NCBI GenBank assembly: GCA_031556475.1
Contig: JAVBSY010000004.1
Location: forward strand, 380 to 64,379
Source: Azoarcus sp.
GTDB lineage: Bacteria; Pseudomonadota; Gammaproteobacteria; Burkholderiales; Rhodocyclaceae
Direction: 5' to 3'
Length of the DNA stretch: 64,000 bases
Program-made: the position numbers and the translations under genes
The notes under the pieces: model-generated
Database searches by the model: none
What the model saw: only the letters and a program-made list of their open reading frames with translations
Told to the model about the DNA's origin: nothing
Shown: positions 3,531 through 26,702 of the stretch, piece by piece
Layout: each line of letters opens with the position of its first letter
Position numbering within the stretch: the stretch's first letter is position 1

Positions 3531-3533
3531 GTC

Positions 3534-5483: not shown

Positions 5484-5498
5484 GATGAATGCTCCTGT

Positions 5499-5990: not shown

Positions 5991-6043
5991 CGTGTGGCTC
6001 CTTGCGCTTCATGGGTCTCAAAGCGTGGCTTCTTTCAGTCCTT

Positions 6044-8284: not shown

Positions 8285-8361
8285 CGTTGTTGCCAGCGTA
8301 TGCGGATGTTTCACCGTCAACGCCTCGGACCAAATCATGGAGCATTGAGCACGGTGCGGTG

Positions 8362-8514: not shown

Positions 8515-8668
8515 ATGGTGGACGTGAAGACGGCGCAGATTTATGCATGAGCCAACCTGGAGATGAAACGCCGCGCGCTGGAGAAGGTGGCGGGAGAGAC
8601 ACCTTCTCCGGCACTGCCGTCATTGGTAGCAGAGCAAGTCGCTGTTGGACCGGCTGCGGTTGCTGTAA
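8515..8668 (+). pseudogene. C-terminal remnant of a tyrosine recombinase (RIT-element-like)
   Basis: VDVKTAQIYA*ANLEMKRRALEKV, then (frameshifted) W*QSKSLLDRLRLL*. Includes the catalytic Tyr region; internal stops. Confidence 0.55.
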
Positions 8669-8719
8669 GGGCCGTGAGAGCGTACTGACGGCCCCGGATT
8701 CGCCGGGGCTGTCGAGATG

Positions 8720-9907: not shown

Positions 9908-11149
9908 TCTCCGGTGAAGGAGCCGTGTGCCGTCCCGGCGGCGCGCAGCACAGATGGGGTGGAATCCGTTGGCTCATCGCCGACGTGGATTCCGTTGCGC
10001 CGGCGATGCGTGGTCGAGTGCTTCGGCAAGACGCGCGACCACAAGCGCGCCTCGCCTACCCAGGGGTTTGCCGGCGTTGCGTGGGATGCACGTCTGCCGG
10101 CTCGGTCCGTCTTAAAAATGAATGTATTGATCCGTCCCGCTCTCGCATTTCGGCGTTCGTCGGGCGTTGGGACGCCACCCAGCCTCAAGGGACAGGGGCA
10201 GCATCGGCGCGAAGGTCGAGCCTTGCGCGCTTCTGGGGGATCAGTCCTCGATACGTAGCGTCATCCCCCTGCATGGGGCCGCCCCTTGACCGAAAAGTCC
10301 AGGGCAGTGCCAGGTCGCAAGCAATGGGTACACGGGGAGTCCAACGGGGGACCAGCACAGCCGTGTGTTGCGCGAGGTGCGCGTGCTCGCAAGGATGACG
10401 GGAACAGTGGCGCGGCATCGGGTGCCGGCCGCTTGAACAGCTCGAATACAGGGCGCGTTCTCGGGGAACGTCTGGCAGGAGACTGCCAGCAAGGCCATGC
10501 GTTGCTCTACGGGTTGAACTGCTTCGGGCACGGACTCAAGGAACCATGCCGAACCCGACTCACAGGTCGGGACTTGAAAATGCGGGTAACGACCGCTACG
10601 CCTTTTGCTCCGCGATGGAGCAGGCCAGGAGGCCTCGGGAGACTGTAGTTCACACCCACGGCGCGATGCCGTCAATGGCAAAGCGGCTGATGCCATCGCA
10701 TTGATGCCGAAAAGGCGGAGTTTGCGGATGGCGTTCGAAATCGCAACGCGGGTGACGAAAATCTCTCGAACGCACATGCCATCGAGGCGGCATGCGGGCT
10801 TGACAGCAATTTTCTTGGCCTCAGGTTTCCACCGTCAGGGTTTCGAGGCCCCTGGGCATGGCGCAGCCGCCTCGCCTCCGAATATGAGGTCTTGACCCGG
10901 GCAGATCCAGTGAGAGCGTAGTGCAACACGGAAACGCGTGGCGCCATGGGACTCGGCGTACTCGACCTGTACTGCGATTCAGCCCGCCTCGGGAGCGACC
11001 ACAGTGTGAGCAGATCGCGAGAACGAGGCTTTCCCGCGCGATTTCCGTGCGGAACTGGCCAAGGCAACTGTATGCATATGTGCTGCAGCTCCTCGTGCCG
11101 CTGGCACCATCGCCGGGGGACTCCAGCTTATTCGAACAGGAGGGTTTTT

Positions 11150-11635
11150 ATGAAAGACAGTCACTATCTGATCCATCACGGCTGGGTGGATGATGCCACG
11201 CACGACACGGCAGGCGGCCATCGGCTGCGCATCAGGCTGGCCGATGCACGCTTGATCGAAGTTGGGGTGGCGTCACCCATCGCCGCTCTGAAGCTCGCCG
11301 ACGAAGTGGGCTTGGTGGTAGCGAAAGACAATCCCGGGCATGCGCTGGTCCTGGTGGACTACACCACGTGCGAGGGACACAACTTCTTGAGCCCGCCAGA
11401 TCATTTCTGGCCGAATGCGGTCGACGCCGGGATCATCGTGCTGACGACGGCCCTGTTCGCCTGGACCCTGCATGACATAGCGCTGGTCGCCGTGCTGGCA
11501 TTCATCAGCCTCTATTGGCTTCTCACGCGCTGGCTGCCCGAGCGCAGGCAACGTCGCCGCGCAACGCACCTCGACTTGCTGCTTGACAGTGCCTATGCGA
11601 ACTGGCGCGTGCAGCGCCGTGAACTGCAGGGGTGA
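11150..11635 (+). CDS. Hypothetical membrane protein (beta-rich N-domain + 2 TM)
   Basis: GGAGG RBS before ATG 11150; two hydrophobic helices followed by a basic amphipathic tail. Confidence 0.7.
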   Translation: MKDSHYLIHHGWVDDATHDTAGGHRLRIRLADARLIEVGVASPIAALKLADEVGLVVAKDNPGHALVLVDYTTCEGHNFLSPPDHFWPNAVDAGIIVLTTALFAWTLHDIALVAVLAFISLYWLLTRWLPERRQRRRATHLDLLLDSAYANWRVQRRELQG

Positions 11636-11641
11636 ATCGAC

Positions 11642-11863
11642 ATGCTCAGGACAACTGAAGGTGCATTGCGCTTCACGGCACAGGAAATTGAGGAGTTCCG
11701 CTCGCTCGGCATCGATGTGACCCAGGTGCGGACTGAGGATGGATTTGCCCGCGCCCTCGGCGAGTGGCTCGAGATCCTGGCCGACGAGCGACCGGACCTG
11801 TTCGACAAGATTACCCAGGCCATGGTGGCGGATGACAGGGGGGCCGATGTCTCATCGTCATAG
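11642..11863 (+). CDS. Small acidic helical hypothetical protein
   Basis: 73 aa, tightly spaced in the operon, protein-like composition. Confidence 0.65.
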   Translation: MLRTTEGALRFTAQEIEEFRSLGIDVTQVRTEDGFARALGEWLEILADERPDLFDKITQAMVADDRGADVSSS

Positions 11864-11946
11864 CGATGGGCGACCGAGGCACGGGCTTGACTGGCAGGTC
11901 TCTTGTCCGACTCTGTCAGTACATCCCGTGCCCTGGAGCCTTGCCA

Positions 11947-12447
11947 ATGCCGAAGCTGCATGTCGTCCGCGGACGCCTCGTCGACCTGCGCCGTCACGTC
12001 AACGTCCATCTTGATCGCCGGAGTTCCTTCGCCCCGAGCGAGCGCTACGAACTGTGGATTCGTCCTGAGGATGGAAAAGAGCGGCAGTTCATCATCCATA
12101 CACGCACCATGCCGGTACGGCGCAGGCACCAAGTCAGCCTGATCGTCACCGAAGATGAGTCGCCGCAAGTCTGGGGATTGGTCAACCGGTCCGCCCACGG
12201 TGGCACCAACTACCTGCGCACCGATCCTCCGCCACTGCTCAGGCTGAAGGACGCCTTGGTCGTATCAGCGATAGGAGGGATGCTGATCTGGCGCTGGGGC
12301 TCCGTTGGAGCCGCGCTGTCCATCCCAGCAGCCCTGACCTATCTGTTGATGGCCGGACTCTGGCGTGCGCTAGTCCGGGCGCGTCGGGCTGCCACGGTAG
12401 ACGCTCAGATGGCGAAGGAAAAGCTGCAATCGGGGGTGGGAGAATGA
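11947..12447 (+). CDS. Hypothetical membrane protein, apparent paralog of 11150-11635
   Basis: Likely start ATG 11947 (MPKLHVVRG); same architecture of beta-rich domain, GxNY/FL motif, 2 TM and basic tail. Confidence 0.7.
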   Translation: MPKLHVVRGRLVDLRRHVNVHLDRRSSFAPSERYELWIRPEDGKERQFIIHTRTMPVRRRHQVSLIVTEDESPQVWGLVNRSAHGGTNYLRTDPPPLLRLKDALVVSAIGGMLIWRWGSVGAALSIPAALTYLLMAGLWRALVRARRAATVDAQMAKEKLQSGVGE

Positions 12448-12659
12448 TGAAGCCGATGCGCTGACAGTTGCCGATCAGCCAGGGACTGACAGGAAGTCCG
12501 ATGGTGGGCACGCCATCGGCTTGGCGCACTCGCCCGCATGACCTGACGCCTCGACTTCTTCGGCATGCAATCGTCGATGCTGCTGCACCACTGCGATCCG
12601 CCGGCGATCTCTGGCAATTGAGGGTCATGGGCGCGGAGCCACCTCGTGCCGCGCCCCAT

Positions 12660-12737
12660 TTCACCGCAAAAATCGCGGCGATTGGCTTGCTGATGCGGCG
12701 AATCAGATGTCTAATCTCCGCATGGATAGCGGAGAAA
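12660..12737. promoter_or_regulatory. Array of five GCGGNGA half-sites over the Fic gene start (putative autoregulatory operators)
   Basis: TTCACCGCA 12660, CGCGGCGATT 12674, TGCGGCGAAT 12694, AATCTCCGCA 12713, AGCGGAGAAA 12728. Confidence 0.5.
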
Positions 12738-13849
12738 ACCTCTACATCTGGCAGTCTGACGATTGGCCGCAGTGGCGTTATGACCTGCCAGCGCTGGCCC
12801 AGGCCCTGGCTGAGGTCAGTCGCGCCCAAGGCATGCTGCTGGGTCGTCTGGCCGACGTCGGACTAACGCTGCGTGACCAAGCCAGCCTCGCTACGCTGAC
12901 CGACGACGTGCTCAAGACCAGTGAAATCGAGGGTGAGGTGCTGAATGTGGCCTCGGTTCGCTCATCGATTGCTCGCCGCCTGGGCATGGACATCGGCGCA
13001 CTCGCGCCGGTGGACCGGCATGTCGAAGGTGTGGTCGAGATGGTGCTCGATGCCACCTCACGCAGCCGCGCCATTTTGACCATTGATCGGCTGTTCGGCT
13101 GGCACGCTGCACTGTTCCCGACAGGCTATTCCGGCTTATCCAGGATCACCGTGGGCCAGTGGCGCGACGATGCGACCGGCCCGATGCAAGTCGTTTCTGG
13201 CCCAGTGAACCGTCGCAAAGTGCACTTCCAGGCACCACCTGCAAACACACTGCCCGCCGAGATGGCGCGCTTCCTGGCATGGGCCAATCGAGACACAGGC
13301 GAGCCTGCACTCATCAAGGCTGGTCTGGCACACCTGTGGTTCGTGACCCTGCACCCGTTCGACGACGGCAACGGCCGCATCGCGCGTGCTGTGGGCGATC
13401 TGTTCCTTGCTCGCGCCGATGGTGCCGAGCAACGCTTCTACAGCCTGTCGGCGCAGATCCAACGCGAGCGCAAGAACTACTACGACATTCTCGAATGCAC
13501 GCAAAAAGGTTCTTTGGATGTCACGGATTGGCTGACCTGGTTCCTCGGTACGTTGGCCCGGGCCGTCGCCAGTTCGCAGGCCACGCTCGACGGCGTACTG
13601 GCCAAGGCGCGGTTCTGGCAGCGCTGGGCCGGTACGCCGATGAATGAGCGCCAGGTGAAACTGCTCAATCGCCTGCTCGATGGATTCGACGGCAAGCTCA
13701 CCAGCAGCAAGTGGGCGGCCATCGGCAAGTGCTCGCCGGATACCGCGCTGCGCGACATCAACCAGTTACTGGCGTTGGGGGTGTTGCAGAAGTCGCCTGG
13801 GGGGGGACGCAGTACGGGCTATGAACTAGAACTAGAAGAAAAGCCGTGA
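12707..13849 (+). CDS. Fic-family protein (DUF4172-Fic-HTH type)
   Basis: Canonical HPFDDGNGRIAR motif, N-terminal YIWQSDDWPQWRYD, C-terminal HTH CSPDTALRDI. The start could be 12722. Confidence 0.92.
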   Translation: MSNLRMDSGENLYIWQSDDWPQWRYDLPALAQALAEVSRAQGMLLGRLADVGLTLRDQASLATLTDDVLKTSEIEGEVLNVASVRSSIARRLGMDIGALAPVDRHVEGVVEMVLDATSRSRAILTIDRLFGWHAALFPTGYSGLSRITVGQWRDDATGPMQVVSGPVNRRKVHFQAPPANTLPAEMARFLAWANRDTGEPALIKAGLAHLWFVTLHPFDDGNGRIARAVGDLFLARADGAEQRFYSLSAQIQRERKNYYDILECTQKGSLDVTDWLTWFLGTLARAVASSQATLDGVLAKARFWQRWAGTPMNERQVKLLNRLLDGFDGKLTSSKWAAIGKCSPDTALRDINQLLALGVLQKSPGGGRSTGYELELEEKP

Positions 13850-14189
13850 ACTCTCCACTCTGGCTGGCGGAAAACACCACCAGCAGATCGGAGCGGGAAA
13901 GGGGTTTTCATGCCATAGCAACTCCGGCACGTTATCTGTCAGGACAGCAACAGCAGACACAACTCTTTCCGGAAGGTGCTGTGCTTGTCCTTCGCCTTGG
14001 CTATTTCCTTTTCGATATCGGCCAACCGCTGGTGCGCCTCACCACAAGATGCCACTCGACAAGAGTTTTTCCCGGTGAATCTGGCATGCTTATGCCTGTC
14101 CGCTCTATAGAATGCTGGGAAATTTCAATGCAATAACATCGGTTCCCGCAATGGGTACCCAATAGAAATAGGACATCCAGGGAGAAGGG

Positions 14190-15164
14190 ATGTACTGTCA
14201 CACAGGCTATCAGCAGTCACTGCCACTGACATGGTTGCAGGCCCCGTCTGAGCAGGATCGGATGGCGCTGCTGGAGTTCCTGCGAGGCGTTCTGTACGGT
14301 CTTTCAGCTTCCACCAAGGAGCATGGTACAGAGGTTCATGCCTCACGGGTCCGACATGCATTCGACAGACTCGGGGCACCTGCTTTGTACCGAGTGGGGT
14401 TGAAGTTGCTCAGTCTGTTGCGCGAGGCTGAAGCTCTATCAGGCGGCTATTGGGTGTCTGCCCCGTTCCGAGTGATTGAGATCGAAGGCCACGCGGTGTT
14501 CATCGGTGCGCTTCCCTCGGCATTTGGCTTCCTGGGCGATGTCACGAATGATGGCCTTTGTCGGTTACTCACCCCGGAGGTCGCCGCACGGTTTCCGCGT
14601 CAGGATATGGAAGCATGGATGGGTGTTCCGCCAGTCCCTGTCGGCTCACATGTCACCGCCTTTTTTCAACATCATCAACGTCAAGCGAGCCCTACGATTA
14701 GCCAAGCCGAGATCGAGTACCTGAGTTTTACGGGAGGTGCCGCTGTGCGTTCCGCGACGAGGCGGCGATTCCTCTGGGACTCTCATCCGGTGTCGCTTGC
14801 TGGCGAACCAATTGCGCTATGCAGGCAGAAACATTTCGGCATTTACCGCTACTTTTCCGCTGAACTCCGTTCAGGTCGGGTGATTTCCGAAGCCGCTATT
14901 GAGCAATCGATTCCACGGCTGCTGTTTGCGTTGGCCCATGATGCGGGCATGCCTGTGGTGATCGATATCCGCCATGGATCCGAAAGCGTCGAGGTGAGCA
15001 TCGCGGAACATCTGCCGATCGAAGAATACCGCCTCGCGCTACTGCTCTCTCGACGCATCGTCCGTCAAAGCAGTCGCCGGACCTTTCACCTTGCGCCACA
15101 ACTCGCGCCTGCGCTCATCGGGCGCCTGATGGAACTGGGATGTATCTTGGAAACTGACAAATGA
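14190..15164 (+). CDS. druD: Hypothetical protein, probable Druantia DruD
   Basis: 324 aa; stop overlaps the start of the DruE-like helicase (ATGA). Assigned by position and size. Confidence 0.55.
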   Translation: MYCHTGYQQSLPLTWLQAPSEQDRMALLEFLRGVLYGLSASTKEHGTEVHASRVRHAFDRLGAPALYRVGLKLLSLLREAEALSGGYWVSAPFRVIEIEGHAVFIGALPSAFGFLGDVTNDGLCRLLTPEVAARFPRQDMEAWMGVPPVPVGSHVTAFFQHHQRQASPTISQAEIEYLSFTGGAAVRSATRRRFLWDSHPVSLAGEPIALCRQKHFGIYRYFSAELRSGRVISEAAIEQSIPRLLFALAHDAGMPVVIDIRHGSESVEVSIAEHLPIEEYRLALLLSRRIVRQSSRRTFHLAPQLAPALIGRLMELGCILETDK

Positions 15165-18100
15165 TCCACCAAAGCTACTCGGTGCAGTCTGTTCACGAGG
15201 CACTGCTAGACACCTTCCATCAATACCTCAGAGCCCAGTACCACATCTGGGACGAGTGGCTGATCAGCGAACGCGACCACATCCTGAAAGAAGTCGGCAA
15301 CACGTATCAGGAGCCGCGGCTCGAAGCAACACCGCAATACGCCCAGGGTCTGGACTACTCGAAGCTAGATATTCCCGGCGAAGCCCAAGCGATCTTGGAG
15401 TACGCGGCGAAGGACTCGCGTACGGGGATTCCCAAAAGGGCATACGCCCACCAGTGCAAAGCGGTTGAGCATTTCCTGCGCGGGAAAGACTTGATCGTTG
15501 CCACGGGTACTGGCTCGGGCAAGACCGAGAGTTTTTTGATGCCGATTCTGTCCCGCTTGGCGATCGAGTCCGCCCAACGGCCAGCAAGTTGGAAGATGCC
15601 AGGGATACGTGCCCTACTGTTGTACCCCATGAATGCCTTGGTTAATGACCAGTTGGGGCGCCTGCGGCGGCTGTTTGGCAGCAATGTGGTCAAGCAAGCG
15701 CTACGGGGCGACAACGAGCGCCATGCGCGTTTCGGCATGTACACAAGCCGCTCGCCCTATCCAGGCAGTCGTAGCACGAAGAAAGACAAGGAGCGCGTGG
15801 AAGCAGAACTGACCCAACTCTACTTCGATGGTATGGCGGAAGAATATCGTGAGCGCCTACAAGTGGAAGGGAAGTGGCCTGCCAAAGACCTGGAGCGCTT
15901 CCTTACGAATCAGTTGAGAACCGATGCATCAGACGTCGAACTGATCACACGCCATGAGATGCAGGAAACCGCACCGGATCTGCTGGTCACCAACTACTCG
16001 ATGCTCGAATACATGATGCTTCGCCCGATCGAAGCACCCATTTTCGAGAAAACAGCCCAGTGGCTGATGGCGGATCCGACCAATGTCTTGACCGTCGTTC
16101 TTGACGAGGCGCACATGTATCGAGGCTCCGGCGGTGCGGAGGTGGCTTATTTGCTGCGCCGCCTTCAGTCACGCCTGGGTATCTCCCGCGAGCGCATTCG
16201 CTTCATTCTCACCAGCGCGAGCCTAGGTGCCTCGGAGCAGGCAAAAGCGGAGGTTAAGGAGTTTGCCGCAAAGCTGACTGGGGGAACTTCGGTCCAGTTT
16301 GAGTTGATTACTGGGGAACGCGATCCTCGGCCCGCAGGCGCCAAGGCGGATGCGAAGACTCAAAGAGCCCTCGCGCAATTCGATTACGCGCCATTGGTGG
16401 ATCTGACGGGCGATGTCACCAAGGCGAAGACCGCGCTCACGACGCTTGCGCAGACCTTGCAGGTCCGACTGGATGCTCCTCGCCCTCAGCGCGAGGATTT
16501 GCAGCAATTCGTATTCGATCTTCTTGAGAAACTTCCCGTCGCCTCTCTAGTTGCACAACGACTTACTGAATCGCCCGCCACGCTGAAGGCTTGCGGCGAG
16601 TTGGCGTTCCTCAACACAGAAGGCCGAGAAACAGCCTTGGAGGCTCTTCTGGCCCTTATGGCTTTCGCGAAAGATCAACAAAAAGGCCGCCCCTTCTGTC
16701 CGATTCGTTCGCACCTGTTCTTTCGCGGCCTGCCCGGACTGTATGTCTGCACCAATATCGAGTGCGGAACCCATGACCCGGCAAAGCCCAAACTACTCGG
16801 GCGGATGCATCCCACGGAGCGCTTGCAATGCGACTGTGGTGCGCGGGTCTATGAACTACTGACGCATCGGTCGTGCGGTGCCGCTTATTTGCGTGCTTAC
16901 ATGCGGCCAGGGGACGAGTTTCTTTGGCACCAACCTTCTAATGGTGCCTGGACGGATACCCAATTGCTAGAGGCGCAGTTCTATGTGCTTCCGGAATCCG
17001 AGATCGAATCGACATCGGGCTGCGTGGTTTGGTTGCATACGCGAACAGGTCGGTTGGTGGCACAGAAACCGGCAGGCGCTGAAAGAGGCGATTACCTCGC
17101 CCTCTTGCGTCCGGATACACCCACACGGGAACGTGGCAGAACCGTCATGAGTCTGGGAGGCGACTGTCCGGCCTGTGGCCAACGGACCAGACCGGAAGCA
17201 CCGCTGGCCATGGACTTGGCGACCAAGGGCGAAGCACCATTCGCTCACCTCATCAGGGCGCAGATCGCCAACCAGCCTGTCACCAAGATGCCTACCGCAC
17301 AGGCACCCAATGGAGGACGCAAAACCATCGTGTTCTCGGACGGTCGTCAGAAGGCAGCGCGCTTGGCGCGGGATATTCCCAGAGAGATCGAACTCGATGT
17401 ATTTCGGCAGACCTTGTTCATGGCGGCCCAGGCGCTCCAGGACATTGGCAAAGAGCCGCGCTTGAACGAACACCTGTATGTGGCGTTCTTGAAATGTCTG
17501 GACGAGCACCATCTGCGCTTTTTCGATGGAGACGACCGCCACCGTGTCGAAGAGCATCTACGGGACTTTCAGAATTTCCACACCAGCGACTTAGCGTCTG
17601 CACTGGATGATCCGCAAAGCCCACCACCGAGTTTCTGGGCCATCCTCCTCAAACAGTTGGGTACGCCTTTCTATTCGATCAGTGCGCTGAGCTTGGGTTA
17701 TGCCGCTCCCAGCAAAAACGCTCGTGCCAGGCTTCATGCAGAGTTCAAGGCCTTGCCACCCGAGGCCGTCGATGCAATGGCCGTGGCTTGGATTCAGCGG
17801 CTCTTGGCACGCTTCGCCTTTGGTAGAGACCTTGCTGAAGGGGTGCGGGCACAGGCTTCGCGCTATCCCCTGAGGCCAATGGCGGCCAAGGATGGGTTTT
17901 CCAAGGAGCAACGGACCTTCCTCGCCACCCAAGGCGTCAATGTCGATGCCTTGACCGAATGCCTGGCACACAATCTCTGCGAGGTGAAGCCAGATGGTTC
18001 GGTGTATTTGCGACCATCGCATGTGATTCTGCGTGCCGCTTTGAACGCACGCTGGGTTCAATGCGAGCATTGCAAGACCATTTCTGCGCTGCCGATCCTC

Positions 18101-20362
18101 GGTCATTGCCCGAACTGCACACGGCCGGACATCACCTTAGTCGATCCCGACGCGACCCATTACTTGCGCGCGCGCAAAGGCTTCTGGCGCGATCCGGTAG
18201 CTCGTGCGCTTTCCGGTAGTCAGCCGCCGATGAGTGTGGATGTGCAAGAACACAGCGCCCAACTTTCCTATAAGGACGCCAATACGCCGTCGCCCACCAC
18301 CGAAGTGTTCGAACGCCAGTTCCGCGACATCTTGCGCATTGGCGAACGGGCCGTCGATGTACTAAGTTGCACCACGACCATGGAGGTTGGCATCGATATC
18401 GGCTCCTTGATCGCAGTGTCGATGCGAAACGTACCGCCCATGCGACAGAACTACCAGCAGCGCGCGGGGCGTGCGGGCCGGCGCGGATCGGCGGTTTCTA
18501 CTGTCGTAACTTACGCGCAATCAGGGGCGCACGATTCGTTCTATTTTCTCAATCCCGACAGGATGCTGGCGGGAGATCCGCCTCGCCCAGTTCTGGACAC
18601 GAACAATGCCCGTATCGCGGATCGGCATGTGCTCGCGCAGTTGTTGCAAGATTTCTTTCGGCCTCTGGCGGGTGGTTCGGGAACAGCGGACATCTTTACG
18701 GTGTTGGGTGACACTTGGACCTTCTTCAAGACGGCCACGGCGCCCACCAGCTTCACGGCCTTCCAACACTGGGTACGCACGTCCGAGGCCGGGCGACAGT
18801 CGCTTAAGCGGGCTCAAGCATGGCTACCCCCAGGACAGGATGCGGCCACCGTGGCCGAGGCCATGATCGCAGCACTCGAAGCACGTGAACCGAACACGCA
18901 GGAAGGCTTGGAGGCGAGCTTGATCGAGTTTCTGTTCGCGCATGGGCTACTGCCGTCCTACGCTTTTCCGACCGACCTTTGCTCACTCCAGATTCAAGAA
19001 TGGGCACCTAGTGGGCGGAAAGGTTTTCGCATCGCCGAACAGGCACAGCAAAGCTTGAACATCGCACTCTCCGAATACGCTCCGGGCCGGCTTGTGGTCC
19101 TGAACAAGAAGACCTATCGCATCGGCACCGTCACAGCCTCCGGCCCGAATACGGAAATCAATAAAGCGACTGCGCTGTTCGATCGGGCACGGGTCTATCG
19201 CCATTGCACGCAGTGCTCCTTCACCGCCGGGTTCATTGCGGGTGACGATGGTGCCACCACTTGCCCTCAATGCGGTGCCGAGTCGCTGCGCACCATGACT
19301 GTGATCCGGCCGGAAACCGTTTTCCCTCGGGGCAAGTGTGAAATCAATGAGTTTGACGATGAGCAGGTCTTTAGCCAGGTCACCCAAGCGCAACTGCCGT
19401 TGCCCGATGAGGACCTACGCTTGCAGACCGTGCCATTTGGGCGGAAAGCAGGATTGGTGCCGCGCCGCCAACAGAAACTGATCGTCGTCAATGAAGGTGA
19501 TCCAGACTCGGATGAGGTTGGTTTCCGTGTCTGTTGCCAGTGCGGCAAAGTCCTCGCTGAAGGGGAACAGGAAGGGCCGCATGCTCGGGATTACTACATC
19601 CAAGCCAGTGGGCAACCCCTGCCACAGCGTTGCGAGGGAGCATTCCAGCGTGTCTTCCTAGGCTATGCCTTCACCTCGGACATCTTGCTGCTACGTATCA
19701 AGCTGGCATCGCCATTGAGATTCGATTTGCTCTCCAGACGGCAGCGCAAACCCATGGAAGATGCCTTGCAGACACTATGCGAGGCGCTGACCCTGTCCAT
19801 TGGTCGCGTGCTCGATATCGATCCGCACGAAGTCAGCGCAGGGTATCGCTTCGGAAATGATGGTGCCTCCGACTTCGCGGACATCTTCATTTACGACATT
19901 CTGTCCGGCGGTGCCGGCTATGCCTTGCAAGCAGGACAGTCCTTCAGCGAAATCTTCGCGCAAGCCAAGCAATTGTTGTCCCAGTGTAGTTGCGCCACTT
20001 CCTGCGAAAACTGCCTGCGGCACTACGGCAACCGCTTCAAGCATGCCAACCTGGATCGCCAACTTGGGCTGGAACTGGCGCAATACATTGAGTTCGGAGA
20101 GGTCCCTGCGGACTTTCCCTTCGAACAGCAGATACGGGTGTTGGCGCCGCTGGCCGAAATGGTCAAACTGGCGGGTTGGGAGCCTCAGATCGACGACCAA
20201 CAGTTTTTACTGACCCACCAGGGAAAGCGCTTCCGAATCGCTGCGTGTCCTTCCCTGCGCGCGTGCATGCCGAAAACTCAGCACGACGGCATGACCGTCT
20301 TGACCTTCACCCCCTATGAACTAGCCAGGGACCTACCGAGTGCCTTCGCAGAATTGAATTGA
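15161..20362 (+). CDS. druE: Large DEAH helicase with DUF1998 (Druantia DruE)
   Basis: 1733 aa; ATGTGSGKT, YPMNALVNDQ, DEAH, TSAS, CTTTMEVGIDIG, QRAGRAGR, multiple CxxC clusters, C-terminal CSCATSCENCL. Adjacent to DruA. Confidence 0.88.
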   Translation: MIHQSYSVQSVHEALLDTFHQYLRAQYHIWDEWLISERDHILKEVGNTYQEPRLEATPQYAQGLDYSKLDIPGEAQAILEYAAKDSRTGIPKRAYAHQCKAVEHFLRGKDLIVATGTGSGKTESFLMPILSRLAIESAQRPASWKMPGIRALLLYPMNALVNDQLGRLRRLFGSNVVKQALRGDNERHARFGMYTSRSPYPGSRSTKKDKERVEAELTQLYFDGMAEEYRERLQVEGKWPAKDLERFLTNQLRTDASDVELITRHEMQETAPDLLVTNYSMLEYMMLRPIEAPIFEKTAQWLMADPTNVLTVVLDEAHMYRGSGGAEVAYLLRRLQSRLGISRERIRFILTSASLGASEQAKAEVKEFAAKLTGGTSVQFELITGERDPRPAGAKADAKTQRALAQFDYAPLVDLTGDVTKAKTALTTLAQTLQVRLDAPRPQREDLQQFVFDLLEKLPVASLVAQRLTESPATLKACGELAFLNTEGRETALEALLALMAFAKDQQKGRPFCPIRSHLFFRGLPGLYVCTNIECGTHDPAKPKLLGRMHPTERLQCDCGARVYELLTHRSCGAAYLRAYMRPGDEFLWHQPSNGAWTDTQLLEAQFYVLPESEIESTSGCVVWLHTRTGRLVAQKPAGAERGDYLALLRPDTPTRERGRTVMSLGGDCPACGQRTRPEAPLAMDLATKGEAPFAHLIRAQIANQPVTKMPTAQAPNGGRKTIVFSDGRQKAARLARDIPREIELDVFRQTLFMAAQALQDIGKEPRLNEHLYVAFLKCLDEHHLRFFDGDDRHRVEEHLRDFQNFHTSDLASALDDPQSPPPSFWAILLKQLGTPFYSISALSLGYAAPSKNARARLHAEFKALPPEAVDAMAVAWIQRLLARFAFGRDLAEGVRAQASRYPLRPMAAKDGFSKEQRTFLATQGVNVDALTECLAHNLCEVKPDGSVYLRPSHVILRAALNARWVQCEHCKTISALPILGHCPNCTRPDITLVDPDATHYLRARKGFWRDPVARALSGSQPPMSVDVQEHSAQLSYKDANTPSPTTEVFERQFRDILRIGERAVDVLSCTTTMEVGIDIGSLIAVSMRNVPPMRQNYQQRAGRAGRRGSAVSTVVTYAQSGAHDSFYFLNPDRMLAGDPPRPVLDTNNARIADRHVLAQLLQDFFRPLAGGSGTADIFTVLGDTWTFFKTATAPTSFTAFQHWVRTSEAGRQSLKRAQAWLPPGQDAATVAEAMIAALEAREPNTQEGLEASLIEFLFAHGLLPSYAFPTDLCSLQIQEWAPSGRKGFRIAEQAQQSLNIALSEYAPGRLVVLNKKTYRIGTVTASGPNTEINKATALFDRARVYRHCTQCSFTAGFIAGDDGATTCPQCGAESLRTMTVIRPETVFPRGKCEINEFDDEQVFSQVTQAQLPLPDEDLRLQTVPFGRKAGLVPRRQQKLIVVNEGDPDSDEVGFRVCCQCGKVLAEGEQEGPHARDYYIQASGQPLPQRCEGAFQRVFLGYAFTSDILLLRIKLASPLRFDLLSRRQRKPMEDALQTLCEALTLSIGRVLDIDPHEVSAGYRFGNDGASDFADIFIYDILSGGAGYALQAGQSFSEIFAQAKQLLSQCSCATSCENCLRHYGNRFKHANLDRQLGLELAQYIEFGEVPADFPFEQQIRVLAPLAEMVKLAGWEPQIDDQQFLLTHQGKRFRIAACPSLRACMPKTQHDGMTVLTFTPYELARDLPSAFAELN

Positions 20363-20363
20363 T

Positions 20364-21575
20364 ATGAAAAAGGGAAAGGTCATCCCTCTTGCCGTCAGGG
20401 AAGCTCGTTTGAAACGCCTGGTGCGAAGGCATCTCAAGAGCTTGGGGTTCGATCGTGATGAGCAGGGGCGCTTGCAGCCACCAAGTTTGGATAAGGAGGC
20501 TTACCGCCGGTTTCATCAAGGGCAGCGTGAGCAGAAACTGGCGGCGAACCGTGCTTGGCTAAGCAAGCACGAAGCCAAGTTGGTGAAATGGTTTGCGGAT
20601 GGGGCATCTATCGTGCCATCGGCCATCGTCCCTGAGTTGGAACTGGTCAAAGGGGGGACATGGCAATCAGACTTGTTCCGCATGGCCACGCTTTATTGGC
20701 AAATCCCTGTCTCGGAGGGCTACGGACGTCGATTGAGATTTCTGGTCTGGGACCGAGGTCATCAAAAGCTGATGGGCATTTTTGCCTTGGGGGACGCGGT
20801 CTTCAATCAGGCCGCGCGCGATGCCTTTATCGGCTGGGACCATCATCGACGCTCCGAGTCGCTGGTGAATCTGATGGATGCCTACGTGCTAGGCGCGCTG
20901 CCCCCCTACAGTCATTTACTGGGCGGCAAATTGGTGGCCTCCTTGGTCCGCACACGCGAGGTGGTCGATGCCTTCCATGCGCGTTATGGCGATTCGGTCG
21001 GTCTCATTTCTCAAAAGAAGAAAAAGCCCCGTTTGCTCGCGGTGACAACCACCTCAGCTTTCGGGCGATCCTCCCTGTACAACCGTCTGCAATTGTCTGG
21101 ACGCAAGATTTTCGAACCCATCGGCTACACCTCCGGCTGGGGGCACTTCCATTTTTCCGGGAAGCTCTTCGATGAATTGCGCCAGTACCTCGAACATCTG
21201 AATGATGGTTATGCCCGCGCATTCAGTTTTGGTTCTGGACCAAACTGGCGCCTGCGCGTCATCCGCCGAGCTCTGGATCGACTCGGCATGGACCCCAACC
21301 TAGTTCGCCATGGACTCGTTCGGGAGGTATTCATCGCCAAGATCGCCCAGAACGCCGAGGCGGTGCTGCGCGGCGACAACACGCGGGTTCTCTACGGCGG
21401 GCTGCCAACAGTCCGCGAGGTGGGGGCCGCAGCGCGAGAGCGCTGGCTCGTTCCGCGGTCTGAACGAGATCAGCGTTATTTGGATTGGCGCGTAGCCGAT
21501 CTTCTGGCCGCCATTCACGACAAGCCTGTGACCGTCCAACCCTTGAGAGTGCTGGCACATGGACTGGGCCATTGA
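20364..21575 (+). CDS. druA: Druantia DruA (DUF4338)
   Basis: 403 aa; YGRRLRFLVWD, GALPPYSHLLGGKLVA, TTTSAFGRSSLYNRL, GYTSGWGHFH motifs. Confidence 0.85.
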   Translation: MKKGKVIPLAVREARLKRLVRRHLKSLGFDRDEQGRLQPPSLDKEAYRRFHQGQREQKLAANRAWLSKHEAKLVKWFADGASIVPSAIVPELELVKGGTWQSDLFRMATLYWQIPVSEGYGRRLRFLVWDRGHQKLMGIFALGDAVFNQAARDAFIGWDHHRRSESLVNLMDAYVLGALPPYSHLLGGKLVASLVRTREVVDAFHARYGDSVGLISQKKKKPRLLAVTTTSAFGRSSLYNRLQLSGRKIFEPIGYTSGWGHFHFSGKLFDELRQYLEHLNDGYARAFSFGSGPNWRLRVIRRALDRLGMDPNLVRHGLVREVFIAKIAQNAEAVLRGDNTRVLYGGLPTVREVGAAARERWLVPRSERDQRYLDWRVADLLAAIHDKPVTVQPLRVLAHGLGH

Positions 21576-23058
21576 TTCCAGTGGTGAACACATCAGGGCA
21601 GGAAGCCAGCACGCCGAGCGAGATGGACTTCGTTGCCCCGTTTGCAAAGCACGGGTTCATCACCGTAACGGCCACGTGCGGCGAGCGTATTTCGCACATT
21701 TCAGCGGCAACTCGAACCAAGCCTGTGAGTTGTACCACCCAAGTGTGGGAGCCGCTTCGGTCGGCATAACAGGGAACGCAAGCACTGGGTTCCATTTCGC
21801 TACCGCAGTTTCTTATTTGGAGGCGCCGGCACTGATATGGCGGGATGACAGGCCCATCCCCGTCAGCCTGTGGCTACGCTTGCCACGGTTGCCGGTGGGT
21901 TACGCATCGACGCTGCGCCTCCATTCTCCGTTGGGACAGCAGCGCTTTCCTGGCGAACTCCTCGCCAAAGCCTACTTTGCCCAAGTGGCGTTACAAGAGC
22001 CTCCAGCCAGCGTCGAAGCCTCTCCACGAGACCCGGCGATCGAAATTCGGCTGAAAGATGTGCTTCAGCAATTTCGCCTAACGGGGAATTTCTTCCGGGC
22101 ACATGTCGATGGTGGGGTGCTCGAAGCGCGCGTTGTGCCTCTGGAGTTGGGTGAGACTTATGTCCTCGTGACGCAGCGATGTTTGCCGCTTCCCCACCCA
22201 GATGCGTTGGAGATCCTCCAGACGCGCACGGAGCGCAATTGGACGGCCTATCGGCTTCGGCTCCGTGATGTTGCAGAGACACGTACGCACGACGTTGCCG
22301 AACTGCGTGCCTATCTGGAACGAGAGATCGTACCCGCGCGGCCCAAGATCGATTTGCTCTGGCCACCACCAAATCGACTCGATCCCGATGGTACGCGCAT
22401 TCACGCAACAACGGTATGCCAATTGATTGTTCGCTCCAATGCTGGACCGCCGATATACAGAGCACTGGAAACCGGTGGCGCGGAGGTAACGACGCTGGGG
22501 AAAGACCTCTACGCCATTAACCTGGCATCGCAAAAGGGCGAGGCCTTAGTTGGGCTGCCAGGGAGCGCTTATCAACAATTGCGGTTCGAGGATACCGAAC
22601 TTATCGAGCCGAAAGGCGTGGTCTTGTCGTCGGATCAAGAGTTCGCTGGTTTGCATACCACGCAAGCCAATGAACTTGCGCATCACACGGGGAGAATAGC
22701 AATACAGGTACCTACAGAGCGCCTATGGCAACGCGTGAGGATCAATCTATTGCCCTTGCGGCCATGCTCCGAACATCGTGAGCATGCACTCGACGGTCCT
22801 TTGCTGAGCTTGGATTGCGGCGCCTTTGGCCGAGTTTTCACGAGCGTTTGCATCACGGAAGAAAAACACCGTCTGCTGTGGTATGCCCGTTTCGAAAATC
22901 TGGTCGTCGGCATGGCCGGACCACTCGCTTGGAGGCGTTTGGATTCGGTGCGTACCAAGGAGCAACTGCTCCACTGGGCTGCCGGAAATGGCGTGCAAGC
23001 CCTTCTCCCCCTCATGTTGTCCGCATTTCTCATTGAGGTAGATCGTGGCCTTTCTTGA
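21559..23058 (+). CDS. druB: Probable Druantia DruB (CoiA-like N-terminal Zn finger)
   Basis: 499 aa; CPVC...RRAYFAH...C N-terminus typical of CoiA-like domains; overlaps the DruA stop. Confidence 0.65.
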   Translation: MDWAIDSSGEHIRAGSQHAERDGLRCPVCKARVHHRNGHVRRAYFAHFSGNSNQACELYHPSVGAASVGITGNASTGFHFATAVSYLEAPALIWRDDRPIPVSLWLRLPRLPVGYASTLRLHSPLGQQRFPGELLAKAYFAQVALQEPPASVEASPRDPAIEIRLKDVLQQFRLTGNFFRAHVDGGVLEARVVPLELGETYVLVTQRCLPLPHPDALEILQTRTERNWTAYRLRLRDVAETRTHDVAELRAYLEREIVPARPKIDLLWPPPNRLDPDGTRIHATTVCQLIVRSNAGPPIYRALETGGAEVTTLGKDLYAINLASQKGEALVGLPGSAYQQLRFEDTELIEPKGVVLSSDQEFAGLHTTQANELAHHTGRIAIQVPTERLWQRVRINLLPLRPCSEHREHALDGPLLSLDCGAFGRVFTSVCITEEKHRLLWYARFENLVVGMAGPLAWRRLDSVRTKEQLLHWAAGNGVQALLPLMLSAFLIEVDRGLS

Positions 23059-25591
23059 TGTGAATAGGAAAAAGCTGGCGTTCCTGCTGAATCGAGGGAC
23101 TCATACAGGCGAACTCAGGAAATTCTTTGTAGAGTCAAGAGTGCCATTGATTCACAAGGGCGCGCGTGGTGTGCAAAACCTTCCCCAAGGAAACACGGAG
23201 AGGATTCGCGCCATTTGCGAACGGCTTCCGCCCAAAACCAACGACACGCTGCGCGACTGGTTCCAGAAGAACATCACCTTGAGCGATCCAATGCCTCCGG
23301 CCGATGTCTTGACCTATCTGGAACTCTACGATCAAAACGAAAGCCTCTCCGCAACCGAAATGCAATTGGTTGCGCGTTCCGCCCTTATCTATTTATTCGA
23401 AGAGACACCCGATCGGGAACTGCTTTCTTTCCTTCGGCGTGCACCGGGTGCACCACCAACGCCCCATGACAGCGTAGCATCCAATTTGGTACCGGTTGAT
23501 ACTGAGCCTCAACAGAATGAAATGGTCTCTCAAGAGGATGAGCCCATTTCGGAGACCTTAACCCCTCAGAGCTATCAACTATCGGAATTGATCGCAGCGC
23601 TCATTGCCAACGATAAGAGCGCTATCGACAACGCCCTAGAGGCTTTTTCGACAGCCACGCAAACACTGGTAGAGGCATTGTTGTACATACGAGGCGGTAA
23701 CATTGAGGCCGCTGGCAAGCAATTGGAACTATTGGATCCTAGTGGTCCAGAAGTGGAGCTTATCAGGAACGCATTGGGCCGCGTCCGTCACCAGCGTGGC
23801 GCTCCATCTTCTTCAAGTGGGATTCAACTGTACATTCCTCAGCAGTTGATGGAGCATCCCAAGGCCGACAGTCACACGATCATTGGTATCTGTACCAATA
23901 TATCAGAAGCGGGAGCCGTCTTCGTGCGGCCTTTGGCGTTGAAATTGGACAAACAATTTCATCTGCTGGGCCAGGACGATCGGGCTGCTTTGTTCCCCGA
24001 GAGTGGTGATGTCATGACGTATCGTTCGGAATTGCGTCTCCCTCTCAAGCCCCGAGATCTCATCCATTGGCGGGTTGCAGAAAAGGAAAATACCTCGGGA
24101 AAAATTCGTTTCCACATGGAGTCCGAACTCGGCCCTGTTTTTGAAACTCGCCGCATCTCTGTCCCCAGCACCGATCCCGATAAAGTGCGCGAACGCATCA
24201 AGACGTTGGCTGCTTCGGAACATCTATCGACAAATCAGCAGATGATTTTTCTGTTATCGGATGGTATTGCCGTGGCATCATTCAAAGCGGTTGACCTCAG
24301 TCGAGATGAGGCCTATGACCAAGCTTGGCAGGCCTGGAGTTCGCTAGAAACCTGGCTGATCGAAGGGCGTGAGTGTTGTCTTGATTTGTCCAAGCATCCG
24401 GCCTCGCATCTGGATCTTTCCACACTGGATACCGCGTTCAAAAAGATCCTGAAAAACTTGGAGGCGGAGCAGAAAGTAACGCTCAGCAAGGCACAGAAAC
24501 GAGAGTTAATCGACCTGCTGCGGGACGCTTCGACGGGGGAACATGGATTTCGTGTCCAACGCGCGGTTTCCGTACTGGAGCACGTCGTGCTCGACGGTGA
24601 CGACCTCGAAACCGTTTTGGACTTGCTCAAGGCACGAGAAGAGGTTCGGCTTCGCGTACAGCAGTTGATCGACGCGGAGCACGCGCAGTGGCGAAGCGAG
24701 CACTCGGGACTCCAAGCCGAAATCGAGGTCTTGAAGCACAAAAAGACGGAACTCGTAAAAGAAGGCAAAGAACAGGAACGTCAGAACAAGAAACTGGCCG
24801 ATGCCGCTGCATCCATGGTCAAAGACGCTTTTTCCAAAGCGATTCATGATGGCATGACGACGTTGGCCAATGCCGAGATATTCCGAATGCTGACGGATAA
24901 CCATACCCATCGAGTGGTGGAGCCCTCAGTGCCTGTTCCGGCGGTCACCACCCTCATCGAGTCGTGGGCCATCAAGGAAACGTTGCCACCCTCCGAAGTA
25001 AAGACCCGTTTGATGGCGCTGGGCTTGAACGCTCGCCAGGCGATTGTCCTGGCCGAATTGTGTGCCCTGACCCTGGACTCAGGGGCGCTCTTGATCTTGA
25101 AAGGGAACTGTGCTCGACAGTATGCGCAGGTTCTGATTCGCATGAACTGCGAAACCAGTGGAATGCTTGCCATCCCGATGGGGTTGACCTCAGGTGCACC
25201 CATTCGTCATGCATTGGACGCTCTGCCCGACGTTCAAAACCTAGCAATCCTGGATGCGGACCTTTCCCCCCTGGAAGTCTATGGCGCACGCCTGCTCGAT
25301 TCTGTCTTTGAAGCGGCCCAGGAGAAGGAAAATAACCCACCACCATTGCTGCTCTCCTGCCTCGGAGGAGACATGTCTCTGCCCTTGCCAGAGGTGGTGC
25401 GACAAATCGCTGTCGTCGTCGATATGGATCTGTCATGGGATAATGGGCTGCACTCGCTGGCAGAGGTCGAGATCGAATCTTCTTCTCTGTTGCCATCATT
25501 TCGCTCAAAGCTCTTGCAACGACTCGCCGAAGTACAGGGAGAATATCAAGACCACGTTGAGCGGGCATTGGTCAAGGCACTCATTCCGTAG
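23045..25591 (+). CDS. druC: Probable Druantia DruC (coiled-coil protein with degenerate AAA-like C-terminus)
   Basis: 848 aa, GTG start overlapping DruB; central heptad-rich segment (LQAEIEVLKHKKTELVKEGKEQERQNKKL). Confidence 0.6.
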   Translation: MAFLDVNRKKLAFLLNRGTHTGELRKFFVESRVPLIHKGARGVQNLPQGNTERIRAICERLPPKTNDTLRDWFQKNITLSDPMPPADVLTYLELYDQNESLSATEMQLVARSALIYLFEETPDRELLSFLRRAPGAPPTPHDSVASNLVPVDTEPQQNEMVSQEDEPISETLTPQSYQLSELIAALIANDKSAIDNALEAFSTATQTLVEALLYIRGGNIEAAGKQLELLDPSGPEVELIRNALGRVRHQRGAPSSSSGIQLYIPQQLMEHPKADSHTIIGICTNISEAGAVFVRPLALKLDKQFHLLGQDDRAALFPESGDVMTYRSELRLPLKPRDLIHWRVAEKENTSGKIRFHMESELGPVFETRRISVPSTDPDKVRERIKTLAASEHLSTNQQMIFLLSDGIAVASFKAVDLSRDEAYDQAWQAWSSLETWLIEGRECCLDLSKHPASHLDLSTLDTAFKKILKNLEAEQKVTLSKAQKRELIDLLRDASTGEHGFRVQRAVSVLEHVVLDGDDLETVLDLLKAREEVRLRVQQLIDAEHAQWRSEHSGLQAEIEVLKHKKTELVKEGKEQERQNKKLADAAASMVKDAFSKAIHDGMTTLANAEIFRMLTDNHTHRVVEPSVPVPAVTTLIESWAIKETLPPSEVKTRLMALGLNARQAIVLAELCALTLDSGALLILKGNCARQYAQVLIRMNCETSGMLAIPMGLTSGAPIRHALDALPDVQNLAILDADLSPLEVYGARLLDSVFEAAQEKENNPPPLLLSCLGGDMSLPLPEVVRQIAVVVDMDLSWDNGLHSLAEVEIESSSLLPSFRSKLLQRLAEVQGEYQDHVERALVKALIP

Positions 25592-25647
25592 AAGAAATCG
25601 CCCGTGTGCGGACCAGTCAGGTTCCACCCAAAGCTGCCGCACCTATA

Positions 25648-25826
25648 CGCATCCAGGGTGCGCTGCTCGGCGCTCAATTCACGCGTAGACGGCCCGCTGT
25701 CGGTACCTTCCTTTCCGTCAATGCCTCGTAGCGCATCTGTGCATAACGATGCCGCAGTCCGTGCATGCTGCTCAGGTCTGCCACTTTGCACTGGCCGTCG
25801 TAAGTGTGCCGTTGCTGGATGAACAT
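25648..25826 (-). pseudogene. Frameshifted remnant of an Integrase_1-family recombinase
   Basis: QQRHTYDGQCKVADLSSMHGLRHRYAQMRYEALT, then after a frameshift GPSTRELSAEQRTLDA. Confidence 0.75.
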
Positions 25827-25968
25827 CTTGTGCGTGGAAATCCAAGCCACAACCAACCGTATCGCTAGCTGCGTGACTGTTTCTTTGCACAGACTGACTG
25901 CTAAACTTCTCCCGATCATGCGTACGCCACCCGCCTGTCACCGTGTCACGCCATCTCCTACCAGCCCA

Positions 25969-25997
25969 GGTATCGTGTGGGGTAAATCGTGGGGGAA
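25969..25997 (+). repeat. Arm-type integrase binding repeats (ATCGTG[T]GGGG x2)
   Basis: GGTATCGTGTGGGGTAAATCGTGGGGGAA, about 60-90 bp inside the att core. Confidence 0.5.
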
Positions 25998-26028
25998 GTG
26001 CAGGCCGGCACCCCATATAGATCATGAA

Positions 26029-26041
26029 AATCAACCGCTTG
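26029..26041 (+). promoter_or_regulatory. IHF binding site in the att arm
   Basis: AATCAACCGCTTG matches WATCAANNNNTTR exactly. Confidence 0.65.
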
Positions 26042-26058
26042 CAGCGCGTTTCGCGCTT

Positions 26059-26079
26059 CAGGTGCAGAACATCGAGTGA
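26059..26079 (+). repeat. att core = 3' end of yicC (attR)
   Basis: CAG GTG CAG AAC ATC GAG TGA = QVQNIE*, the conserved YicC C-terminus, 8 bp before gmk as in the yicC-gmk-rpoZ-spoT synteny. Confidence 0.8.
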
Positions 26080-26087: not shown

Positions 26088-26702
26088 ATGCCAGGAACGC
26101 TCATTATTGTTACCGCGCCTTCCGGTGCGGGTAAAACCACCTTGGTTCGCGGTCTGCTCGAGCGCGATCCGCAGGTACAGTTGTCTGTGTCCTACACCAC
26201 GCGTGAGCCGCGCTCCGGCGAAAAGAATGGGCGTGAATACAATTTCGTCGACGTTTATACCTTCCGCTCCTTGCGCGACCGTGGCGAATTTCTCGAATGG
26301 GCGGAAGTTCATGGCAACTATTACGCTACTTCCAAGGTCTGGTTGAAAGAGCAGGTCGCGGCTGGCCGCGATACTCTGCTGGAAATCGATTGGCAGGGTG
26401 CGCAGCAGGTGCGCAAGCTTTTTCCCGAGGCGATGTCCGTTTTCATTTTGCCGCCGTCGCTCGAGGAACTGGAAAGCCGCCTGCGCAAACGCGGTACAGA
26501 CAGCGACGATGTCATCGATCGCCGGCTGCTGGCGGCACGCGGCGAGATGCGTCATGTGGGCGAGTTCGACTACGTTATACTGAACGACGAACTACCTGCC
26601 GCGCTCGAAGACCTTGTCGGTGTCGTGCGCGCGGTTCGTCTGCGCTACAAGAATCAGCGTTCGCGGCGGCCGCAGTATTTTGCTTTTCTTGAACAGGATT
26701 GA
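26088..26702 (+). CDS. gmk: Guanylate kinase
   Basis: APSGAGKT P-loop, SYTTREPR, EWAEVHGNYY, LEIDWQG. Confidence 0.97.
   Translation: MPGTLIIVTAPSGAGKTTLVRGLLERDPQVQLSVSYTTREPRSGEKNGREYNFVDVYTFRSLRDRGEFLEWAEVHGNYYATSKVWLKEQVAAGRDTLLEIDWQGAQQVRKLFPEAMSVFILPPSLEELESRLRKRGTDSDDVIDRRLLAARGEMRHVGEFDYVILNDELPAALEDLVGVVRAVRLRYKNQRSRRPQYFAFLEQD

Follow-up and report, generated by a model that had tools for sequence, protein, structure and literature searches.

A probable attR junction upstream of gmk marks the end of a yicC-specific integrase island in Azoarcus sp.

What separated the last codons of yicC from their gene and left them directly ahead of gmk in an Azoarcus sp. genome, and can the element responsible still move? 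The question arises from a 64,000-nt stretch of contig JAVBSY010000004.1 (assembly GCA_031556475.1; here C71), hereafter the window, in which positions 25969-26079 (GTGTGGGGTAAATCGTGGGGGAAGTGCAGG ... CATGAAAATCAACCGCTTGCAGCGCGTTTCGCGCTTCAGGTGCAGAACATCGAGTGA) had been read in a first-pass annotation as the right attachment site (attR) of a genomic island lodged in a betaproteobacterium. The features on which that reading was built, namely the codons QVQNIE*, an integration host factor (IHF) site lying upstream of them with 17 nt between, and G-rich direct repeats, are all found where it had placed them, and the island interpretation is supported. Window 25962-26079 is, very probably, the attR of an island of at least 40.4 kb that a P4-type tyrosine integrase put into the last codons of yicC. 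The host is betaproteobacterial, as proposed, with its closest named yicC proteins in Pseudothauera and Thauera (77-79%).

The counterpart of this junction lies on another contig. A profile search of the assembly contigs with the YicC C-terminal family returns a single match, on contig C111, where yicC terminates in GAACAGGTGCAGAACCTAGAGTGA, the island-supplied QVQNLE*, with the reading frame kept. The full-length gene, the duplicated core and the P4-like integrase that the first-pass annotation had expected are all present, on C111 and not upstream within the window as it had supposed. When the left attachment site (attL) and attR are compared without gaps, 12 identical bp are flanked on either side by mismatches, with 18 of 21 positions matching over the yicC remnant and 22 of 25 over an extended segment. 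As identity ends on both sides of the 12 bp, the 21-bp stretch that had been taken for the core is the displaced end of the gene, and the exchange segment spans at most 12 bp; on this alignment, strand exchange must be confined to CAGGTGCAGAAC, within which the exact cleavage positions would fall. The remnant 21-mer occurs once in the window (0 expected), its sole genomic relative is the end of yicC and, since the genome holds no third copy, the island is not part of a tandem array. A 14-mer copy of TTCAGGTGCAGAAC at C64:6810, considered as a sign of a tandem array or of an internal att site, lies within an RND pump gene and was set aside as chance.

Joined host flanks were searched against 40 relatives, and this comparison with empty sites, proposed at the first pass, bore out the insertion. 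In two genomes of the same genus (G002 and G004), yicC and gmk are contiguous, as they likewise are in at least 11 other relatives; yicC of these two genomes ends in CAGGTGCAGAACATCGAGTAG, the same as the remnant, and the gmk ATG follows 13 nt on. Because unoccupied yicC-gmk sites exist within the genus, the arrangement seen here is an insertion and not the ancestral state.

The integrase responsible would be the intact protein encoded beside attL, which can be aligned from end to end with homologues at 85-87% identity, whose translation displays by eye the candidate catalytic Arg, His-x-x-Arg, His and Tyr, and for which protein databases offer only the generic label 'tyrosine-type recombinase/integrase'. 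One scan of species-representative genomes found homologues at 79 loci (47-87% identity), distributed over Ottowia, Comamonas, Hydrogenophaga, Xenophilus, Piscinibacter, Methylibium, Rubrivivax, Roseateles, Aquabacterium, Rhodoferax, Thauera, Pseudothauera, Zoogloea and a few gammaproteobacterial metagenome-assembled genomes, and a 400-genome sample of the GTDB class added 13 more. At 74 of the 79 loci int is preceded by the end of yicC at a distance of ~210 bp, and four of the remaining five have too short an upstream flank; among more distant integrases of other Gammaproteobacteria (roughly 36-46% identity) yicC lies directly upstream in five of seven, and at 32% identity or less in none. 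In Ottowia, Hydrogenophaga and Piscinibacter the integrase is 85-86% identical, while their yicC proteins are only 42-44% identical to that of the host. Integrase similarity so far above yicC similarity means that the module has moved horizontally, and recently.

The junction itself is equally widespread. The attR block (25962-26079) was found in 14 of 15 genomes with a homologous integrase, at 5-31 kb from int in eight genomes and ~200 kb away on the same contig in two more, a recurrence that excludes chance. We aligned 18 attR sequences, from Zoogloea, Ottowia, Thauera, Pseudothauera, Piscinibacter, Hydrogenophaga, Methylibium, Rhodoferax and others. To the left of the core the sequence is island-type and conserved, to the right it depends on the host (ATCGAGTAG, CTGGAGTAG, TATTGAGTAG and so on), and the beginning of host-variable sequence at this point places the crossover in the core. 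TTCAGGTGCAGAAC is nearly invariant; GTGGGGTAAATCGTGGGG, in the arm, is identical in 15 of the 18 and one base off in two, only a decayed second Methylibium copy being without it. In the nearest relative, G006, conservation of the attR arm reaches back to ~25840.

Within the arm, the repeats are rare words in a recurrent geometry. GTGGGGTAA (25977) and GTGGGGGAA (25989) are the sole GTGGGGKAA matches in the 64-kb window; GTGGGG-N6-GTGGGG occurs four times genome-wide, one per att arm, and GTGGGGTAAA five times, four of them in the two att arms. These repeats are presumed to be the sites of the integrase's N-terminal arm-binding domain. On the attL side, ~110 bp past yicC, TGTGGGGTAAAT stands twice in direct orientation at 12-bp spacing, followed by inverted TTCCCCACAG and TTTACCCCACAGA before int. 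Relative to the core, the P-arm pair lies at -82/-70, 12 bp apart, and the P′ arm keeps direct GTGGGG words at +129 and +141 with an inverted one at ~+189 in family members whose integrase identity falls as low as roughly 55-60%. Five gammaproteobacterial loci (L135 and L137-L140, in genomes G132, G330, G064, G143 and G216) display the same P′ layout of two direct words 12 bp apart and one inverted word. In these distant members (37-46% integrase identity) the arm word is TGGTGACAG, TGATGGCAG or GGTGGGCAG; the layout is kept while the word differs with the integrase, a co-variation expected of arm-type integrase sites.

Between the repeats and the core, AATCAACCGCTTG leaves 17 nt before the first codon of the yicC remnant and is a candidate IHF site; the perfect IHF match that the first-pass annotation had named is confirmed. 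Perfect matches to WATCAANNNNTTR number four in the window, with 0.73 expected. Across the 18 attR sequences the consensus columns are fixed or nearly so (A16, A18, T18, C17, A18 and A17, then T16, T18 and G17), while the two central N columns vary freely (C8/A7/G2/T1 and G7/A6/T3/C2), a pattern that would be expected of a functional IHF site. Abutting the core, an AGCG/CGCT dyad of 4-6 bp is kept in most attR sequences of the family, the AGCT/AGCT of Methylibium and Rhodoferax representing one compensatory change, and may perhaps serve as a core-type integrase site or bind another protein. Coordinates are collected in Table 1.

Table 1. Features of the island, its attachment sites and its flanks. 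Coordinates are those of the window unless a contig is named.
Feature	Position	Strand	Basis or remarks
Island portion in the window	1..26058	+	Remainder C111:10323-24307 and unassembled ISAs1 interior
attR P arm, island-derived	25962..26058	+	18 attR sequences, compared by blastn and aligned with MAFFT
Two direct arm-type repeats, TGTGGGGTAAA and TCGTGGGGGAA	25975..25997	+	GTGGGG starts 25977 and 25989; 12-bp spacing
Candidate IHF-type bending site, AATCAACCGCTTG	26029..26041	+	Perfect match to WATCAANNNNTTR
Imperfect inverted repeat abutting the core, TGCAGCGCG / CGCGCTTCA	26040..26060	+	AGCGCG ttt CGCGCT
Core	26059..26070	+	12 bp, CAGGTGCAGAAC; exact in attL (C111:10302) and attR
Displaced native yicC 3′ end, QVQNIE*	26059..26079	+	CAG GTG CAG AAC ATC GAG TGA; detached from gene
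gmk, guanylate kinase, first host gene past the island	26088..26702	+	Pfam Guanylate_kin E = 2.5e-46
yicC, intact	C111:9456-10322		288 aa; both YicC Pfam domains (N and C)
Island integrase, P4-type, intact	C111:10532-11857		441 aa; Arm-DNA-bind_3, Phage_int_M, Phage_integrase
hipA 3′ fragment, residues 278-405	1720..2103	+	Pfam HipA_C, tblastn
Integrase_1-type tyrosine recombinase, not the island integrase	8720..9907	-	Pfam Integrase_1 and Phage_int_SAM_2
Fic/DUF4172 backbone gene, SoFic-like	12707..13849	+	Pfam DUF4172 and Fic
Type I Druantia, order druD-E-A-B-C	14190..25591	+	Pfam and PADLOC

The two contigs that carry the attachment sites can be paired through a broken gene. The first codons of an ISAs1-type transposase stand at the end of C111 and its last codons at the start of C71, and the insertion sequence (IS) ends of C111 and C71 are each common to one further contig, so that a two-copy IS broke the assembly. 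With the intact hipA from a related Ottowia island as tblastn query, hipA was located in two parts in the same orientation, residues 1-63 at C111:23155-23342 and residues 278-405 at C71:2099-2482; halves of one gene on the two contig ends fix the pairing. The backbone order hipB, hipA, Integrase_1, Fic, followed across C111 and C71, agrees with that of related islands. The island then measures 13,985 bp on C111 and 26,437 bp on C71 plus the IS interior, hence at least 40.4 kb and in all roughly 41 kb. At the break, hipA residues 64-277 have been replaced by an insertion that holds, along with an ISAs1 copy, a low-G+C alpha/beta-hydrolase gene (window 428-1426); hipB is intact.

The mechanism that these parts propose is conventional, with nothing unexpected in it. 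A circular island with an attP of ~290 bp would enter by exchange inside CAGGTGCAGAAC, yicC retaining its frame with the QVQNLE* that the island supplies and the native end QVQNIE* becoming stranded at attR, just before gmk. The N-terminal domain of the integrase would contact GTGGGG(T/G)AA, present as two direct copies in the P arm and, by int, as two direct and one to two inverted copies in the P′ arm, and IHF would bend the P arm at AATCAACCGCTTG, bringing arm-bound integrase to the core. Excision would be the reverse, would need attL, attR and the integrase, all of them intact here, and probably a directionality factor, and would restore an attB reading GCGCGAACAGGTGCAGAACATCGAGTGA.

That the QVQNIE* codons and the neighbouring motifs are mere chance features upstream of gmk, marking no island boundary, is already refuted and retains practically no probability: short cores do recur, as the exact copy of TTCAGGTGCAGAAC in the RND pump gene (C64:6810) demonstrates, but the 21-mer is unique in the window (0 expected) with its only genomic relative at the end of yicC, empty-site genomes exist, and the block is kept in 14 of 15 related genomes. 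The locus could instead hold a true Vibrio mobilizable genomic island (MGI) or SGI1-like yicC element, mobilised by an SXT/R391 or IncA/C helper through an oriT mimic or MpsA/MobI. The same target, the 3′ end of yicC, and the position of int beside attL (PMC8409611) are shared with such elements, and gammaproteobacterial integrases at 37-46% identity share the site and the arm layout. However, Pfam searches of the main island open reading frames (ORFs) of at least ~150 aa and selected smaller ones gave no TraG, TraN, relaxase or MobI, no rdfM-like small gene stands beside attR, the backbone (hipBA, Integrase_1, Fic) differs, and the hosts are betaproteobacteria, whereas the SXT/R391 and IncA/C helpers are described as gammaproteobacterial elements, all of which makes this identity very improbable.

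The preferred account, that of an attR left by a P4-type island, has evidence weighing against it as well, and much of this concerns mobility. The join of C111 to C71 is deduced and not assembled, and binding by IHF and the integrase is argued from motif and conservation. A Pfam search of 49 small island ORFs and selected ORFs recognised no AlpA, Xis or RdfM excisionase or recombination directionality factor (RDF), the ORF lists inspected for nine related islands hold no small ORF common to them upstream of attR, and the stretch from the druC end (25591) to attR holds no rdfM-type gene, just unsupported ORFs that gave no Pfam match. The island shows signs of decay, its hipA being split by the IS-associated insertion, and carries ~20 kb of metabolic-looking inserts absent from related backbones. 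Within the genus, G006 holds the same island reduced to 11 kb, with arms 85-86% identical and Fic kept but int deleted, and G005 a decayed copy in which int is cut after ~25 codons and an IS3-type element abuts attR; with int truncated or deleted in both, loss of mobility appears common. Such observations (the missing recognisable RDF, the hipA destroyed by an IS-linked insertion, the large secondary inserts and the int-less remnants in G005 and G006, with the stranded yicC codons of G005 themselves mutated to CGGGCGCAAAACATCGAGTAA) favour the view that the junction is real and the island now a fixed, decaying remnant without excision or transfer, its attR a fossil. This view has to contend with an integrase that is full length and aligns end to end at 85-87% identity, with the candidate catalytic residues seen by eye in its translation, and with two att arms in which no conserved element departs from the family consensus. 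Excision at low rates without a dedicated RDF occurs in some P4-type islands, and a novel RDF in the island would be compatible with the Pfam result. We regard the fossil as a serious possibility, though not the favoured one, and the island's present ability to excise as roughly evenly balanced.

Other occupants of the site were met among the relatives. The yicC-gmk interval of G001 (L017) spans 7.4 kb and holds dnaE2-like, isochorismatase and carboxymuconolactone-decarboxylase genes with no homologue of the island integrase, and that of G003 (L018) spans 6.6 kb with ORFs of sizes like those in G001; given the G001 interval without an integrase, an interruption between yicC and gmk does not always mean an island of this family. 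A different yicC island of 8.3 kb lies at 762-9099 of L021 (G018, of the same family as the host), where the integrase is only 41.6% identical and a PrimPol-PriCT-DUF927 (P4 alpha-like) primase-helicase is carried, which suggests a satellite-like element using the same site. At ~142072-142189 of L113, in a Methylibium genome (G053), lies an attR-type core with a second integrase of this family (65% identity) directly behind it, an arrangement that fits the tandem accretion of two islands at yicC.

The islands share a backbone of int, hipB (HTH_3), hipA, the Integrase_1 recombinase on the opposite strand, ~0.9 kb of conserved non-coding sequence, small membrane-protein genes and Fic, and from Fic up to attR the cargo of related islands is variable. 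The Fic gene shows 82-85% DNA identity in five related islands. Extra inserts in the present island comprise Phd/VapC, a 384-aa protein, a TOTE-type AEP-helicase, aldo-keto reductases, hydrolases and LysR regulators, together with the ISAs1 and hydrolase gene inside hipA and an MFS/SDR/ADH block. The 384-aa protein matches no family, and the gene after it encodes an 810-aa AEP-TOTE primase and SF2 helicase (Pfam AEP-TOTE E = 2.3e-100); the pair lies at C111:12721-16314 (L002:3722-7315). A helicase 69% identical to the 810-aa protein adjoins attR in a Pseudothauera island. The two genes are a mobile two-gene conflict module.

The expectation that the island would act as a defence hotspot held: Druantia I, the TOTE-type AEP helicase, a SoFic-like Fic and toxin-antitoxin pairs are present, and six related islands also encode defence proteins. 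For Druantia, Pfam identifies DruA (E = 4.5e-86) and DEAD plus MZB domains in a 1733-aa protein, and PADLOC identifies DruE1 (1829.7 bits) and DruA1 (E = 1.9e-173), with weaker matches to DruB, DruC/G and DruD; its G+C content is 52-59%, that of the host flank 60-62%. Among the pooled ORFs of the six related islands, PADLOC finds Hma A/B/C, DISARM DrmMI/DrmD/DrmA, TIR-Argonaute-associated proteins and type IIG restriction-modification, as well as BrxH, MADS, PbeA and SoFic, the last in five of 82 pooled proteins. The attR end of these islands is a swap point for anti-phage systems, with Druantia, DISARM, Hma, TIR-Argonaute-associated genes and type IIG restriction-modification exchanged there.

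A more speculative matter is the pair formed by the Integrase_1 gene and the block upstream of it. The Integrase_1 protein has ~75% amino acid identity in related islands, where it lies within 3 kb of int; large plasmids of Burkholderia and Cupriavidus carry homologues at 31-39% identity, which are uninformative on a relaxase function. The block (window 9908-10840, ~0.93 kb) keeps ~74% identity across four related islands, two of them from Ottowia and the others from Piscinibacter and Zoogloea, and is as conserved as the gene, with small indels and with variable sites distributed 112/110/117, against 223/73/88 in the gene. This lack of codon periodicity, together with the indels, marks it as a conserved non-coding backbone element, possibly an oriT, an origin or an RNA. 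Relaxases that resemble tyrosine recombinases are known in MpsA, MobK and TcpM (PMC6414798, PMC8152469). It is conceivable, though unlikely, that the islands form a mobilisable family in which the recombinase (8720-9907) and the block constitute a relaxase/oriT module, as do MpsA/oriT of SGI1 and MobK of pIGRK; compared with MpsA, MobK and TcpM, the Integrase_1 protein has an N-terminal SAM-like domain of its own. If that were so, the islands would hitch on resident conjugative elements and shuttle defence systems among Comamonadaceae, Sphaerotilaceae and Rhodocyclales.

On the host side, gmk starts 8 nt after the remnant and is followed by ORFs of the sizes of rpoZ and then spoT. A sigma-70 scan of 25400-26300 gave no candidate gmk promoter; from the end of druC to gmk (window 25592-26090) there is no promoter-like site and, in a simple scan, no terminator-like site on the + strand. 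With the island in place, expression of gmk-rpoZ-spoT may rely on read-through from it or on a promoter within the attR arm that departs from the consensus. No RNA family was matched when window 1-30000 was scanned with Rfam (E <= 0.1). An ORF at 25674-25919 on the - strand, entertained as the remnant of a second integrase on account of a HGLRHRYAQMRYEALT motif, was discarded, as Pfam gave nothing and blastp against the Integrase_1 protein was not significant.

For an island of at least 40.4 kb that the assembly splits over two contigs, exact ends, core and att architecture are now annotated, and yicC-specific islands are extended from Gammaproteobacteria to betaproteobacteria. The conserved arm, GTGGGGTAAATCGTGGGG ... 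AATCAAC..CTTG ... TTCAGGTGCAGAAC, offers a search handle with which islands can be delimited and their cargo mined for new defence genes, and is suited to wastewater and soil betaproteobacteria.

Among known systems, the islands GISpuPO1, GISspANA3 and GI21 of Shewanella and Pseudoalteromonas (Zhao et al. 2022) are yicC islands for which excision was shown experimentally and which their HipAB pair stabilises (PMC8978831). The present island resembles them in its yicC target, a phage-type integrase beside attL, a short duplicated core (theirs of 21 bp), hipAB and restriction or defence cargo, a comparison made by described features. It departs from these islands, which have an AlpA-family Xis by int and hipAB at the attR end, in that no AlpA or Xis was found among its 49 small ORFs, hipBA follows directly after int with hipA broken, the exact core is 12 bp and the hosts are betaproteobacterial. 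The arm words and IHF motif have a wider parallel. Attachment sites of the lambda/P4 type combine arm-type sites, IHF sites and a core, and their integrases have a separate arm-binding domain. The present att sites likewise carry repeated arm words on both sides, an IHF consensus between arm sites and core and a short segment of identity that marks the place of strand exchange, whereas the word GTGGGGTAA, its pairs at -82/-70 and +129/+141 and the inverted copy at ~+189 are clade-specific.

The first-pass annotation had regarded the island as an equivalent of the MGIs of Vibrio, which are small, carry cargo and depend on other elements for their movement (PMC8409611, PMC5704250). The likeness holds for the integration module, since MGIVflInd1 (mobilised by SXT/R391) and MGIVmi1 (mobilised by IncA/C) also occupy the 3′ end of yicC with the same attL-int orientation. 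It does not extend to mobilisation: MGIs are defined by a helper-mimicking oriT, an rdfM by attR, MobI in some and SetCD- or AcaCD-responsive promoters (PMC8409611, PMC5704250), whereas here hosts and backbone are different and neither an oriT mimic nor rdfM, mobI, mpsA, a tra gene or such promoters were recognised, though no search was aimed at every one of these. The SGI1-like yicC elements (Durand et al. 2021), known in E. coli, Salmonella, Aeromonas, Proteus and Pokkaliibacter, measure 23-26 kb and carry mpsA/mpsB, traG, traN and sgaC with an rdfM homologue before attR (PMC8409611). With IEEcoMOD1, IESenUSA1 and IEPplInd1 of that group the island shares its yicC specificity, the absence of an xis downstream of int and a variable cargo that includes anti-phage genes (PMC8409611); it is unlike them in that no Tra or FlhC-type proteins were found in the Pfam scans (main ORFs of at least ~150 aa and selected smaller ones), and its sole tyrosine-recombinase-like backbone gene, the two-domain Integrase_1, is set apart from MpsA by domain make-up. 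The literature searched on yicC-specific islands concerns Gammaproteobacteria in the classical sense only and yielded nothing on betaproteobacterial ones. The element is a yicC-specific integrase island that is neither an MGI nor SGI1-like and has a backbone of its own, and it belongs to a large and apparently undescribed island family in Burkholderiales and Rhodocyclales.

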